From the sequence record OQ921332.1: a DNA stretch of 64,000 nucleotides; one strand, written 5' to 3'. The position numbers and the translations under genes are program-made. Position 1 is the stretch's first letter; every line of letters starts with the position of its first letter. The notes beneath the pieces are model-generated. The model saw only the letters and a list, made by a program, of their open reading frames with translations. It did no database searches and was not told the DNA's origin. Below, piece after piece: positions 16,111-30,054 of this stretch. The DNA comes from Escherichia phage vB_EcoP_PAS59.

Positions 16111-16602
16111 ATGAATAATATTGACCCGTCAATAAAAGAAGCTCTTGATTACGACCCTTTGACTGGAGATTTCCGATGGGTTAAAACTTATGGAAAAGGA
16201 CACAAAGGGTCTATAGCTGGTTCTGTAAATACCAATGGGTATTTGAGAATCGTTTATAAAGGTGCTAGATACTACGCTCATCGACTTGCTTACTGGTGGG
16301 ACACTGGATTGCTTCCTGAAGAAGTAGATCACATAGACCGCAACAGGATAAACAACAAAAGAGAGAATCTTAGGGGGACTACTAGATCAGGAAATGGCCT
16401 AAACAAAGTAGCTCAGAGTAATAATTTATCAACCGGAGTGATTGGAGTGACTGTCCATAGAAGGAAAAGTGGCTCTATTGCTTACCGGGCGGTATTTAAA
16501 TCTAAGCACATAGGACTCTTCTCAACCATAGAAGAAGCCTCTAGGGAATATAATAAAGTCAAGGAGACTTACATAAATGACAATCAAAGCTTCATTAATT
16601 GA
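16111..16602 (+). CDS. HNH homing endonuclease with AP2-like DNA-binding domain
   Basis: 'LDYDPLTGDFRW...AHRLAYWW...DHIDRNRINNKRENLR' plus 'GVIGVTVHRRKSGSIAYRA'. Confidence 0.7.
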   Translation: MNNIDPSIKEALDYDPLTGDFRWVKTYGKGHKGSIAGSVNTNGYLRIVYKGARYYAHRLAYWWDTGLLPEEVDHIDRNRINNKRENLRGTTRSGNGLNKVAQSNNLSTGVIGVTVHRRKSGSIAYRAVFKSKHIGLFSTIEEASREYNKVKETYINDNQSFIN

Positions 16603-25914: not shown

Positions 25915-26655
25915 ATGTCTATGATCCCTGAACTGTCTGTATCCCGTAAATCCAACTACGATGTAATCCCTGATGGTGAGTACGAAGCACGTATTGTTCG
26001 TGTTGTAGGTTTGGGTGTTCACAATCGTGACCCTTGGATTGACCCTAAGACCAAAGCAGTTACCCCTAAGAACCCAGCTTTCCGTATGGACTTAGCTTTT
26101 GAGCTGATTGGCGTAGATGCAACAGGGACTGATAATGAAGGCAAACCTCTGGACCCTCGTCCTGCTTGCCAGTTTAAATCTTTCGATGTAAACCCACGAG
26201 CTAAGAACTCTGGTATTCTAAATCTGATTAAAATGATCGACCCAAGTGTTCAAGCACTGAAAGGTGATTTGGGTTGGTTTAAAGATATGCTGTTAGGTCA
26301 GCCTGTTAACATTCTGGTTAACTCTTACACCAATAAAGCTGGTGAGAAGAAAAACTCCATTAAAAGCATCACTCCAATCCCGACTAAATATCGTGACGCG
26401 GTAGGTGCTCCTCGTAGTGAGTTGATCTTCTTCGAACCGTATGCTGAGACTGACGCTAACTTAGCTGCTTATCAAGCAATCTTCCCATTCCAACGTAACC
26501 TCTTGACTCAAGCTAACGATGCTAAGAATATCCCTCTGGCTGGTCGTGAAGTTACTAAAGCTTCTGATACTGAACAGAAAGATGCTACTCCAAGCATCCC
26601 TACCATTAATGAAGAGCCGCAATCAACCTTTGAAGAGGATGATTCGCCTTTCTAA
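25915..26655 (+). CDS. single-stranded DNA-binding protein (putative)
   Basis: Acidic C-terminal tail ending '...EEDDSPF' (as in SSB DDDIPF); sits after a large regulatory region and before a terminator. Confidence 0.5.
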   Translation: MSMIPELSVSRKSNYDVIPDGEYEARIVRVVGLGVHNRDPWIDPKTKAVTPKNPAFRMDLAFELIGVDATGTDNEGKPLDPRPACQFKSFDVNPRAKNSGILNLIKMIDPSVQALKGDLGWFKDMLLGQPVNILVNSYTNKAGEKKNSIKSITPIPTKYRDAVGAPRSELIFFEPYAETDANLAAYQAIFPFQRNLLTQANDAKNIPLAGREVTKASDTEQKDATPSIPTINEEPQSTFEEDDSPF

Positions 26656-26677
26656 GAATCTCTCCTTGTAACAGCTT

Positions 26678-26702
26678 AGCCACCTTCGGGTGGCTTTTTT
26701 CG
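26678..26702 (+). terminator. intrinsic terminator AGCCACC-UUCG-GGUGGCU plus UUUUUU
   Basis: Read directly; after the SSB-like gene. Confidence 0.65.
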
Positions 26703-26713
26703 TTGGAGTTAAA

Positions 26714-27055
26714 ATGGAAAAGCTTCAAAACAATATAGGTTTTTTAATCTTCACAGCTCTGGTTTTCTTTGGTGGTGTCAAGTTTGAGCAATACAGAAGT
26801 GATAGTAATGCTCTTGACCATGAGAAGAAACAGCAAGAGATTGAGGTTGAGAGAGCTAAGGCTGCTGATGAAGTGGCTCAGAAAGTTCTGACTGGTTTAT
26901 CTAACTGGAAGAAGAACACGGAAACTATTTACAAAGAGATGCATTATGAAAAGACTAAGCCAGTTTTTTACAATGTGTGTGCTAGTGATGAGTATGTAGG
27001 ACTTTTCAATGAACGACAGCAACAAGCAGCGGAGGCACTGAAATTAAAGAATTAG
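26714..27055 (+). CDS. i-spanin-like protein (N-terminal TM plus periplasmic coiled coil)
   Basis: 'IGFLIFTALVFFGGV' TM, charged helical remainder; C-terminal 'GLFNERQQQAAEAL' duplicated downstream. Confidence 0.4.
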   Translation: MEKLQNNIGFLIFTALVFFGGVKFEQYRSDSNALDHEKKQQEIEVERAKAADEVAQKVLTGLSNWKKNTETIYKEMHYEKTKPVFYNVCASDEYVGLFNERQQQAAEALKLKN

Positions 27056-27537
27056 TTAAATATCTATCTTACAATGAGGTTTCTGGTCTTCTCTGCTGGA
27101 AACAGTCTGAGGATAAGAGCGCTCAGTGGAATTCAAGATTCGCTGGAAAGGTGGCAGGTTGTAAAGCCACAGATGGCTATACAGTGATTACCTATCAATA
27201 TAAACAGTACAAAGCTCATAGAATTGCTTGGTATATCAAAACTGGAGAGATTCCTGATTTTCAAATAGACCATAAAGATTTAGACAAATCTAATAATTCT
27301 TGGAGCAATCTAAGAAGAGCAACACCTGTCCTTAATAATGCCAACAAAATAGTTCAAAAGAACTCTTTAACTGGAATAAAAGGTGTAGGGTACAGGTCGG
27401 ATATTAACAAATGGAGTGCTCGCATCGGATATCAAAACAAAGTAATTTGGCTTGGTTATCACAGCACTCAAGATGGTGCAGAAAATGCTTACAAAGAAAA
27501 AGCAAAAGAGTTGTTTGGTGATTTTTCTCGCTTCTAG
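27043..27537 (+). CDS. HNH-AP2 homing endonuclease; predicted AUU start
   Basis: Frame open from 27013 with no ATG/GTG/TTG until 27151, yet encodes conserved N-terminus 'IKELVKYLSYNEVSGLLCWK...AHRIAW'; GGAGG 7 nt upstream of ATT 27043. Confidence 0.55.
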   Translation: MKELVKYLSYNEVSGLLCWKQSEDKSAQWNSRFAGKVAGCKATDGYTVITYQYKQYKAHRIAWYIKTGEIPDFQIDHKDLDKSNNSWSNLRRATPVLNNANKIVQKNSLTGIKGVGYRSDINKWSARIGYQNKVIWLGYHSTQDGAENAYKEKAKELFGDFSRF

Positions 27538-27751
27538 TTTGATGGCTTGTTCAACGAGCGACAACAGCAGGCAGCTAATGCCCTTACCAACAAACCTAAA
27601 AGCTGAATGTGATGTAGACCTCCCTTTACTTCAGAGTGGACAGGGAGTAGCACTTGCAACAACACTCGAGTGGTATCAGGACAATTATACAACCTGTGCC
27701 GCTAACCACAACGGTTTGCTTAAAGCTCTCAAGGAGAGAGGAATACAATGA
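27485..27751 (+). CDS. o-spanin-like lipoprotein (putative; start uncertain)
   Basis: 'MLTKKKQKSCLVIFLASSLMAC|STSD' signal/lipobox-like, Pro-containing mature part with further Cys; overlaps HNH 3' end in another frame. Confidence 0.3.
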   Translation: MLTKKKQKSCLVIFLASSLMACSTSDNSRQLMPLPTNLKAECDVDLPLLQSGQGVALATTLEWYQDNYTTCAANHNGLLKALKERGIQ

Positions 27752-27972
27752 TCAGAGCGGAACTTACAATACCAGAAGGTGTTACTCAGTTTCATGCAGT
27801 ATGGGAACACAATAACCAAATCTTTGGTTGTACCTTCAAGTTCTTTATTAATGAAAATGGGTCTTATTGGGCTTATTATGTCCCTGAAGATGATATATGG
27901 TCTCGGATTGGGCATCCAAGTCAACACATTCCTTGCCCTGAAACAGCAATGTATTTATTCTGCGTAGTTTAA
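27748..27972 (+). CDS. hypothetical protein
   Basis: ORF only. Confidence 0.35.
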   Translation: MIRAELTIPEGVTQFHAVWEHNNQIFGCTFKFFINENGSYWAYYVPEDDIWSRIGHPSQHIPCPETAMYLFCVV

Positions 27973-27996
27973 TATAAAGTAAGTTAAGGATGACTT

Positions 27997-28647
27997 ATGA
28001 AGAAAAAGACAACACCCACACGCTATCGTATTCATGGCATACCTATTAAATACTACCCAACCTTCGATGAATTCTATCGAGAGAATTGGAAAGTTGTGCA
28101 TAAGTATTTTATGTACGACATTAAAGATTATCACGAAGCAGAGGATGTTGCTCAGGAAGTGTTACTGAACTCTTGGCGTTTTGTATTTGCAAAGCAAGAA
28201 GAACTGCTGCTTACCGATGAAAAAGATATTGAACACATGACTTATCGTGTGAAGAATATCATCTGGTCGATTCGTTCTAATCGACAGACAGTTGGAGACA
28301 GACGTATCTATTCTATTCCAGAGGCTGATATGTTTAGACCTCCCGAGATGAATTCATGGGAAAGTCCTTTAGAGATTGCTATGGATAAGCATGATTCTAC
28401 TGGAGACCCATTCTTGGAATCTAGAATCTTTTTCTTCTTCCAAGACCTAAGTGATATTATGGAAAACCGCAAGATGGCAAGTATGTTCTCAATGCTCTTC
28501 CTCGGTATTCCTCATGATCACATCCAACAAGAGCTGGGAATTTCACACGGAACCTTCTATCGCCGTTATTCGGAGAATCGTGATCTGTATGAAGCGGTAG
28601 TAGAGAAGCACTTTGATAAAGAAGATCTTCAAGGGATGATTCAATAA
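27997..28647 (+). CDS. phage-encoded sigma-70 family (ECF-like) sigma factor
   Basis: Region-2-like '[17 protein letters not shown]' and C-terminal HTH-like '[22 protein letters not shown]'. Confidence 0.5.
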
Positions 28648-29243
28648 TGAGTAAACCTTTAGTAGTAATCCTAAATGGACCTCCGGGTTGTGGTAAAGAT
28701 ACAATCGCTAATGCTTGGTTAGAGAAGACAGCTGGTAACACTGAGTTTAGACCGCATGTAAAGGCTTTTAAGGAGCCTATGTATCGGGTGGCTGCTGCTG
28801 CATTAGGTCTCCCTCTTTATGAGTTCATGGAGCTGTACAACGACCGTGAGTGGAAAGAACTTGTCCGTCCTGAATGGGGAGGTAAGTCAGTTCGAGATTT
28901 GATGATTGCAACTAGCGAGAATTATCTGAAGCCTATGTTTGGTGAGACCTGCATGGGTAAACTTGCTGTTAGCAGTATCCAACAACATATCCCATCACAG
29001 AATGATGTTATCGTCTTCTCTGATGGTGGTTTTAGAGCAGAAGTTGAAGAACTAGAGAGACACTTCCATGTTCGAGTAGTTCAGGTTCTCCGCGATGGCT
29101 GCTCCTTTGAAGGAGACTCCCGTTCTTATATTGAAGGAACAAACCTACCAACCTACCTCCTCTTTAATGACCGTTCTGTAGAAGAGGCAGTTGAGGATTT
29201 AGAGTGGATTATTGAAGGGACACGGAGAGATCTCTATGTCTGA
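28647..29243 (+). CDS. P-loop nucleotide kinase-like protein
   Basis: Walker A 'LNGPPGCGKDT' near N-terminus, about 200 aa. Confidence 0.5.
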   Translation: MSKPLVVILNGPPGCGKDTIANAWLEKTAGNTEFRPHVKAFKEPMYRVAAAALGLPLYEFMELYNDREWKELVRPEWGGKSVRDLMIATSENYLKPMFGETCMGKLAVSSIQQHIPSQNDVIVFSDGGFRAEVEELERHFHVRVVQVLRDGCSFEGDSRSYIEGTNLPTYLLFNDRSVEEAVEDLEWIIEGTRRDLYV

Positions 29244-30054
29244 TGTAATCTATCCTGAAGTGGCAATTGTGGATGCAGATGTTCTACGATATGAAGTCGG
29301 TGCTCTTACACAAGAGCATCCTTTTCTAGACACAGGTCGTGTTCCAGTTGATTATGGATTCTTGATTGAACGACTTCAACATAAAATAGATGTAATCATT
29401 GCAAGGTCTGGTTGCGAGAAAACAATCTTTTACTTCAGCGAAGGTGGTAATTTTCGGTTTGATATTGCTAAGCAGCAAGGCTATAAAGCTAATCGACCAC
29501 CGGGAGAAAGACCTCACCACTGGCAAAATGTCAGTGATTACATTAAAGAGAATTACGAATACGTAGAAGTTTTTGGGAGAGAGGCGGATGATGCCCTAGC
29601 TGAAAGACAGAGACGTGATAAGAACACTATCATTTGCACCCGTGATAAAGATTTGTTAATCACTCCCGGATGGCATTACCGTTGGGCTTGCGGGGAGAGA
29701 CAGAAAGAAGTACCTCCTCACTATGTATCAGAGGAAGTAGCATGGCAGAACTTCTTCTACCAGATGCTGATCGGGGATAGCACAGATAACATTCCCGGAT
29801 GCGGTGAGAAGGTTGAAATGATGTGGGGTGGCAATCTAGTAATGCGTCGTAAAGGCATTGGTAGTAAGGCTGCAATCAAACTTATTGAGAAGGTATTCGA
29901 TAAGTGGACTCTTTATCATATTATACGAATGGAATACTATAAAAGGTTCGAGGAAGAAGCAGAAGCTAAGATGTTAGAAAATGCTCGATTGCTCTTCGTT
30001 GGACAAGCTGAAGGTGACCTCTTTGATTGGTCATGGTTAAACAAGGAATGGTGA
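29236..30054 (+). CDS. 5'-3' exonuclease / flap endonuclease
   Basis: 'LIGDSTDNIPGCGEKV...GIGSKAAIKLI' H3TH-type motif, acidic clusters. Confidence 0.65.
   Translation: MSDVIYPEVAIVDADVLRYEVGALTQEHPFLDTGRVPVDYGFLIERLQHKIDVIIARSGCEKTIFYFSEGGNFRFDIAKQQGYKANRPPGERPHHWQNVSDYIKENYEYVEVFGREADDALAERQRRDKNTIICTRDKDLLITPGWHYRWACGERQKEVPPHYVSEEVAWQNFFYQMLIGDSTDNIPGCGEKVEMMWGGNLVMRRKGIGSKAAIKLIEKVFDKWTLYHIIRMEYYKRFEEEAEAKMLENARLLFVGQAEGDLFDWSWLNKEW

Follow-up and report, generated by a model that had tools for sequence, protein, structure and literature searches.

The stretch analysed here (the window) comprises 64,000 nucleotides (nt) of Escherichia phage vB_EcoP_PAS59 (OQ921332.1), and it carries on its plus strand an HNH-AP2 homing endonuclease gene between the two genes of a spanin pair, the Rz-like inner spanin (i-spanin; 26714-27055) and the Rz1-like lipoprotein, or outer spanin (o-spanin; 27485-27751). 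The open reading frame (ORF) of the endonuclease occupies 27043-27537, with 164 codons and a stop, and overlaps the 3' end of Rz by 13 nt and the 5' end of a new o-spanin by 53 nt. As the first-pass annotation had stated, the frame is open from 27013, where TGA at 27010-27012 closes it upstream, and it runs to TAG at 27535-27537. Codon reading also confirmed the claim that no conventional start precedes GTG 27151-27153, which is the earliest in-frame ATG, GTG or TTG and codon 47 of the open frame. This GTG is the start of the 128-aa coding sequence in the SU7 RefSeq record; it is not conserved and no Shine-Dalgarno (SD) sequence lies ahead of it. No near-cognate codon other than ATT at 27043-27045, the proposed initiation codon, occurs from the upstream stop to the conserved N-terminus, and the GGAGG that had been placed 7 nt ahead of this ATT does lie there, at 27031-27035.

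Based on its sequence and predicted structure, the product is a member of the free-standing HNH-AP2 homing endonuclease family. When translated from ATT, it matches Pfam HNH_3 with E=1e-13 (51 bits against a cut-off of 24.8 bits) and Pfam AP2 with 25.1 bits, which is below the cut-off of 33.3 bits; both matches fall downstream of 27151. The DHKD..NN..NLR motif of the active site is intact, including the catalytic His and the Asn residues of the beta-beta-alpha-metal HNH motif, and aligns to I-HmuI. The AlphaFold2 (AF2) model has a mean predicted local distance difference test (pLDDT) score of 85.3. Its top Foldseek match is I-HmuI (PDB 1u3e), in which the N-terminal beta region and the HNH core superpose with those of the model over 99 aligned columns. 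On the other hand, I-HmuI is intron-encoded, has a sequence identity of only 23% and carries a helix-turn-helix C-terminal domain, whereas the C-terminal domain of our model has an AP2 fold and matches the AP2 structures of WRI1, ERF1 and TEM1 (Foldseek probability 1.00, root-mean-square deviation 1.0-2.0 A).

We consider with high confidence, from sequence and model together, that the 36 start-less N-terminal codons are translated, conserved coding sequence, because they hold family-invariant residues, are confidently modelled and show a ratio of non-synonymous to synonymous substitution rates (dN/dS) like that of the core. The N-terminal peptide IKELVKYLSYNEVSGLLCWK... was claimed to match the paralogs at 16111, 30027 and 31419, and the alignment with their N-termini bears this out, with L and W invariant in the segment. 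When outside homologs that start at a normal Met are aligned (alignment A2), W19 is invariant and L8 and G15 are nearly so. A tblastn search of the phage collection gave 1761 records with a query coverage of 80% or more, and among the matches listed the alignments begin at residue 1-6. Residues 1-20 are modelled as a short helix and a beta-hairpin with pLDDT of 93-95. In the part that does not overlap Rz (27058-27150), the window and Bas86 differ by 8 synonymous and 6 non-synonymous changes, a dN/dS of 0.14, and for the equivalent part dN/dS is 0.10 between EK010 and KM01; the corresponding values of the catalytic core are 0.15 and 0.03. Between the window and the EK010 lineage dS is saturated, and dN is 0.27 in the N-terminal part and the core alike. 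Conserved coding sequence reaches upstream of every canonical start, which is a mark of AUU-initiated genes.

The start region was compared in 10 sequences from 6 lineages, several of them close relatives. Three of these (L012, ENA ERZ22233142 NODE_35; L013, a Logan contig; and L014) were added from public assemblies and were found through a protein database and contig look-up. The codon equivalent to ATT 27043 is ATT or ATC in all 10 sequences: ATT in the window, SU7, Bas86, Bas87 and L013, and ATC in L014, EK010, E20-1, KM01 and L012. The canonical in-frame starts, in contrast, are conserved neither in position nor in existence. Counted from ATT 27043, the first canonical codon is GTG at codon 37 in the window, SU7 and L014, but in Bas86 and Bas87 codon 37 is GTT and the first canonical codon is TTG at codon 49, and in L013 it is GTC and an ATG follows at about codon 65. 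Codon 13 is a non-start in all of these. In EK010 it is ATG, in E20-1 and KM01 it is GTG, and in these three phages it is the first canonical codon, with GAG at codon 37. In L012, codon 13 is GTC, codon 37 is GTG and the first canonical codon is the latter. GGAGG is invariant in the 6 sequences of the window lineage, and AGAGGG stands at the equivalent place in the EK010 lineage, so that 10/10 sequences have one of these two SD forms 7 nt ahead of AT[TC], which is in frame in 9 of them. The N-terminus is bounded in the EK010 lineage, where a stop precedes ATC by 4 codons, none of which is near-cognate.

The sequence in which the conserved ATC is out of the HNH frame is L012. Here a run of 7 T (about 905-925) contains one extra T compared with EK010, which brings the HNH frame in line with Rz, behind the Rz TAG, and an in-frame ATT occurs two codons after the Rz stop. 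This T-run could be a slippage site or an error of the assembly, or the copy could be degenerating. In outside homologs, an ATG with an ordinary SD precedes the equivalent position by 2-19 residues, and the ancestral gene therefore had a normal start. The closest outgroup, P0005 (48% identity), was considered as another copy between spanin genes and was rejected, as it is free-standing and has a normal start. Further copies of the cassette were sought in public collections: a protein search of IMG/VR gave 1 distant locus only, a DNA-pattern search of IMG/VR gave 2 unrelated HNH genes with normal ATG starts, and a DNA-pattern search of the JGI metagenomes gave 0 matches.

The motif GGAGG-N5-9-ATT is not enriched in the window (6 observed against 9.1 expected) and is unusable as evidence alone; the remaining 5 matches lie inside genes or have a very short ORF after them. 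Among the 94 stop-to-stop ORFs of at least 100 codons in the window, 8 have a start-less leader of at least 35 codons. Of these 8, the HNH-AP2 ORF alone lies on its region's coding strand, and no other ORF on that strand has both an SD and a near-cognate codon in the leader. Accordingly, as read from the sequence, the signal is the combination of a start-less leader, the coding strand and an SD with a near-cognate codon, plus the conservation across relatives, and not the motif alone.

The context of the gene, which the first-pass annotation did not mention, is the overlap of Rz and Rz1. The region 26600-27800 is 97.9% identical to Escherichia phage vB_EcoP_SU7, one of the phiEco32-like podophages of the Gordonclarkvirinae, a group that includes the source of the window. 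By megablast, 98 phage records match the region. Eight of them, from the six phages SU7, Bas86, Bas87, EK010, E20-1 and KM01, cover at least 80% of the query and all have the HNH gene, whereas the HNH-less records among the matches listed cover 53-57% in two pieces, with flanks up to 96.7% identical; about 90 related records are without HNH. The carriers (8/98 records) belong to two genera and have the same junction throughout, so that the gene is present sporadically and at a fixed site. We infer homing activity of the element.

The HNH-less phages UKE3 and IMEP8 align to the window up to 26997 and again from about 27543, which delimits a homing-endonuclease cassette of 545 bp (26998-27542, plus strand). 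The ORF fills all of the cassette but about 45 nt at the 5' end and 5 nt at the 3' end. In UKE3 and IMEP8, Rz ends in ...DEYVSLFNERQQQAANALTNKPKS and the stop codon, and the o-spanin begins inside Rz in the +1 frame, forming an overlapped pair. The uninterrupted junction (UKE3 or Bas88) reads ...GATGAGTATGT directly followed by CAGCTTGTTCAACGAG..., and the insertion point is two codons before the lipobox Cys codon of the o-spanin, thus inside both spanin genes. Rz, annotated as Rz-like spanin in SU7, EK010 and UKE3, begins with MEKLQNNIGFLIFTALVFFGG, has an N-terminal transmembrane segment, and receives its last 19 codons (26998-27055) from the cassette, so that its tail is GLFNERQQQAAEALKLKN and a stop in place of the ancestral SLFNERQQQAANALTNKPKS and a stop. 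This tail contains a recoded copy of the Rz segment GLFNERQQQAA (26999-27031), whose second copy is at 27544-27576. The two copies agree in 11/11 residues but in only 24/33 nt, and all 9 differences are synonymous. The new end EALKLKN and its stop follow the duplicate, with the same length and the pattern [AV]LK[LS]K[NE] before the stop in 10/10 HNH-bearing sequences.

On the other side of the cassette, the o-spanin (annotated 'O-spanin' in SU7) starts at ATG 27485. The new o-spanin signal peptide, MLTKKKQKSCLVIFLASSLMAC, is encoded in the +1 frame on top of the last 17 HNH codons. EK010, L013 and L012 have counterparts of this peptide, whose lipoboxes are LSAC, LAAC and LTAC. With the transmembrane segment of Rz and the sequence MLTKKKQKSCLVIFLASSLMAC followed by S, with its lipobox Cys judged by eye, the pair has the features of two-component spanins of the separated type; a Pfam search gave no match for the spanin proteins. 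The ancestral coding ends persist as relics on the plus strand. The former o-spanin start and signal peptide (MKRLSQFFTMCVLVMSM and a stop, 17 codons, 26946-26999) is ended by the first bases of the cassette at TAG 26997-26999, while the same ATG in HNH-less UKE3 leads to MKRLSQFFTMCVLVMSMSAC joined to STSDNS.... The former Rz C-terminal frame (FDGLFNERQQQAANALTNKPKS and a stop, 27538-27606) is out of frame and is kept now only via o-spanin coding in the other frame. At the level of the sequence, these alignments demonstrate the architecture of the insertion and the dual coding.

Several observations concern the neighbouring genes. In UKE3 (L005 735-908) and IMEP8 (L008 739-912; corresponding to the window from 26946 onward), the o-spanin is annotated with 57 aa, beginning MPLPTNLK... 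and without a signal peptide; the true start is apparently the ATG further upstream, within Rz, which would give the peptide MKRLSQFFTMCVLVMSMSAC and STSDNS... named above. The sequence before the new o-spanin ATG (27470-27484) is AAGATGGTG in the window, AAGAGGGTG in SU7 and AAGAAGGTG in Bas86 and Bas87. The window has the weakest o-spanin SD of these, and in the HNH frame the base concerned makes the difference between Glu and Asp. Between an upstream 246-aa gene and Rz, at 26678-26695, there is a strong hairpin that resembles an intrinsic terminator (AGCCACCTTCGGGTGGCT, then a T-run), and the spanin-HNH block may therefore depend on read-through or on a promoter of its own.

From this arrangement, we propose the following course of events. 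The cassette would have entered the Rz/Rz1 overlap with replacement ends that keep both spanins functional: at the 5' end, the second copy of the Rz C-terminal codons, recoded by synonymous changes and continued by a new tail and stop, and at the 3' end, the start codon and lipoprotein signal peptide of a new o-spanin, overprinted at +1 on HNH. The endonuclease frame begins in the Rz tail and would be translated from AUU 27043 by way of GGAGG. The Rz stop (27053-27055) lies 8 nt past AUU, within the 13-nt overlap of the two ORFs, and ribosomes terminating there probably re-initiate, which would add to the use of AUU. The output would be a small amount of the full-length 164-aa enzyme, timed with the translation of the late lysis genes. 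The AUU as initiation codon, the coupling to Rz termination and the low level of expression are what we infer from the sequence; low and late expression with reduced toxicity is plausible. An RNA hairpin hiding the SD, as in T4 I-TevI and mobE, was sought by folding and none was detected (z = 0.37).

The weak codon may also be held in place by dual coding with Rz, which would be a second reason for the odd start. By direct reading, a change of T27045 to G turns the Rz codon 27044-27046 into TGA, and any NTG at 27043-27045 in this lineage likewise creates an Rz TGA and removes three Rz residues. As to the strength of such codons, initiation in E. coli at AUU and AUC amounts to 1-2% of that at AUG (bioRxiv 10.1101/063800), and AUU behind an SD is 6-8-fold weaker than AUG but gains about 2-fold when it lies at a coupled junction (PMC3592434).

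Other explanations of the start-less leader have to be weighed against initiation at AUU. The database annotations imply that each phage uses its first downstream canonical codon, GTG 27151 here, and makes an N-terminally truncated but active enzyme; the SU7 RefSeq, EK010 and BASEL records have such starts (128, 152 and 116 aa), and every annotated product of the gene is truncated (these lengths or 100 aa, against 164). The Pfam HNH_3 and AP2 matches would be retained in the product from 27151. However, the supposed start is GTT in Bas86 and Bas87 and GTC in L013, and a start at codon 49 in the former or at about codon 65 in the latter cuts into the HNH region. Considering also that GTG 27151 is without an SD, and that the 36 codons it skips have a dN/dS of 0.14, the invariant W19 and a confidently modelled hairpin, we regard this explanation as unlikely. 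Somewhat harder still to accept is an untranslated gene that lost its start and is kept only since the Rz tail and the o-spanin signal peptide are encoded in its ends. Degeneration after fixation is common among homing-endonuclease genes, the host genes constrain 13 nt at the 5' end and 53 nt at the 3' end, and L012 has a frameshift near the N-terminus. Yet the ~430 nt free of such constraint are open in 10/10 sequences despite saturated dS between lineages, with dN/dS of 0.03-0.15 in the unconstrained part and an intact catalytic DH..NN..N motif. All lineages are without a canonical N-terminal start, and selection nonetheless continued.

The HNH frame is -1 relative to Rz and overlaps it by 43 nt (27013-27055), and the first-pass annotation had named frameshifting from the upstream gene as an alternative; an Rz-HNH fusion could be made by a programmed -1 ribosomal frameshift in the last Rz codons. 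An internal SD can stimulate -1 shifts, as in dnaX, and GGAGG does lie upstream of A_UUA_AAG, while in the EK010 lineage the Rz frame contains the heptamer U_UUA_AAA. On the other hand, the heptamer is not conserved, being A_UUA_AAG in the window, A_UCG_AAG in L014 and U_UUA_AAA in EK010 at non-equivalent positions; the first of these has poor P-site re-pairing and the second is not slippery. In L012 the HNH frame coincides with that of Rz behind its stop. No structure was found downstream, where the minimum free energy of -22.5 kcal/mol compares with a shuffle mean of -23.7 (z = 0.37). A textbook G_GGA_AAG site exists in the capsid region of the same phage, and the absence of such a site at Rz-HNH is therefore meaningful. 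In the established topology of i-spanins, the C-terminus lies in the periplasm, and a nuclease fused to that of Rz would be exported away from DNA. With no conserved heptamer, no structure and a periplasmic partner, we rejected frameshifting from Rz as the main route and hold it very improbable. We also rejected a self-splicing intron in Rz that contains the HNH gene, and we give this reading next to no credence. It is suggested by the GenBank records of Bas86 and Bas87 (L002, L003; 415-1307), which annotate the Rz-like spanin as a two-piece join across HNH, but an Rfam search of 26500-28000 found no group I or II intron or other family even at E up to 10, and the 545-bp insert is almost wholly ORF. 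The left copy of the Rz tail, with its purely synonymous divergence and its own conserved stop, is read as protein, and the BASEL paper mentions neither an intron nor a spanin.

Initiation at AUU or AUC, here at AUU 27043 with a strong GGAGG 7 nt upstream, is in our assessment the best explanation. We prefer it because the downstream canonical starts vary, the SD and AUU/AUC are shared by all 10 sequences, and the stop in EK010 bounds the N-terminus. The proposal of a translated N-terminus with a probable AUU start was supported by every comparative test that we ran (dN/dS, the non-conservation of GTG 27151, the SD with AUU/AUC in 10/10 sequences and the EK010 stop). Several points weigh against it. 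AUU and AUC both encode Ile, and their conservation fits an internal Ile codon too; the SD bases double as Rz codons (GCG GAG GCA) and are under that constraint too; near-cognate initiation is weak, and function at 1-15% of AUG efficiency is an assumption; L012 must use another codon, its in-frame ATT, or be degenerating; and the sample is the 10 partly close relatives described above. Initiation at AUU rests on comparative evidence and is supported but not proven, with a probability of roughly 0.6. More tentatively, and with the odds somewhat against it, the AUU/AUC start may be a selected feature. It would be locked by dual coding with the i-spanin, weak, discriminated against by initiation factor 3 (IF3) and coupled to termination, giving trace nuclease only with the late lysis genes. 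The element would also be hard to lose, since the C-terminus of Rz and both the start and the signal peptide of the o-spanin are encoded in its flanks, and an imprecise deletion would kill lysis.

To our knowledge, infC and pcnB are the only confirmed AUU-initiated genes of E. coli. As we propose for the HNH-AP2 gene, both have an AUU start behind an SD and a low, regulatable output, and in thrS-infC the start is right beside the end of the upstream cistron, as in our locus. They differ in that they are host housekeeping genes, whereas the gene described here is a selfish phage gene in which AUU alternates with AUC among relatives and the start is predicted from sequence. For endonuclease genes that begin inside a preceding gene, T4 provides examples: segF, segC, mobA and mobC overlap the upstream ORF by 11, 20, 23 and 24 bp, and mobE has UAAUGA (PMC2988022). 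Their low expression is thought to come from termination-linked re-initiation or scanning (PMC2988022). The overlaps of 11-24 nt in T4 resemble the 13 nt found here, but the T4 seg and mob genes have AUG starts, except for GUG in mobA, and here the only candidate is AUU/AUC.

The insertion has a direct precedent in the T5-like phages Shivani and phiR201, in which a GIY-YIG homing endonuclease gene separates the spanin genes, and the differences are limited to the extreme C-terminus of the i-spanin and the o-spanin lipoylation signal (Kongari et al. 2018, PMC6139136). In that case, as here, the endonuclease gene lies between spanin genes that overlap in relatives. The endonuclease family (HNH-AP2 versus GIY-YIG) and the phage group are different, and in our locus the signal peptide is overprinted on the 3' end of the endonuclease, the Rz tail is a recoded duplicate and there is no canonical start. 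In Aeromonas phage Aeh1, mobE is reported to be inserted in nrdA, and sequence carried by the element to help restore the function of the host protein (Crona et al. 2011, PMC3045599). The two cases share an HNH gene in an essential host gene and element sequence that aids the host protein. In Aeh1, however, one gene is split and two polypeptides reassemble, whereas here two overlapping genes are separated and each is completed by cassette codons. The arrangement has known precedent, and what is unusual is the non-canonical start together with two overprinted host-gene junctions.

If true, a conserved AUU/AUC start in a phage homing endonuclease would be a natural addition beyond infC and pcnB, and another way for selfish nucleases to hold their expression low. 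If the start is moreover selected, this would be the first homing endonuclease documented with a start other than AUG, GUG or UUG, and the third confirmed AUU start in the E. coli system. The locus is a clean example of a mobile gene invading two overlapping essential genes via replacement coding ends, and these ends, with the overprinted signal peptide, make the element and the host genes mutually dependent. In practical terms, all database records of the gene are truncated (100-152 aa instead of 164), and the o-spanin is mis-called in many relatives. Bas86 and Bas87, which have the HNH gene, and Bas88, which is HNH-less, are public BASEL phages on a K-12 derivative, and the predictions are directly testable.

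Two further loci of the window may be mentioned. A second AUU-start gene was sought among the start-less ORFs of the window and none was found; the search gave only a frameshift candidate in the capsid region. On the minus strand, the ORF 56584-55523, ending ...GVLFTAAGKVAA and a stop, has the zero-frame sequence G_GGA_AAG (55541-55535) three codons before its stop, and a 180-codon ORF in the -1 frame (extension to 54999) follows, with Ig-like-looking repeats (VTVSPASLASLETGATRQFTA...). From its sequence, the site resembles that of a classic programmed -1 frameshift, by which Ig-like domains would be added, possibly to the capsid protein. The paralogous HNH-AP2 gene at 30027 has a TTG start, followed by GTG and ATG codons, and overlaps its upstream gene (29212-30054) by 28 nt, and it is another endonuclease gene that starts within the preceding ORF.

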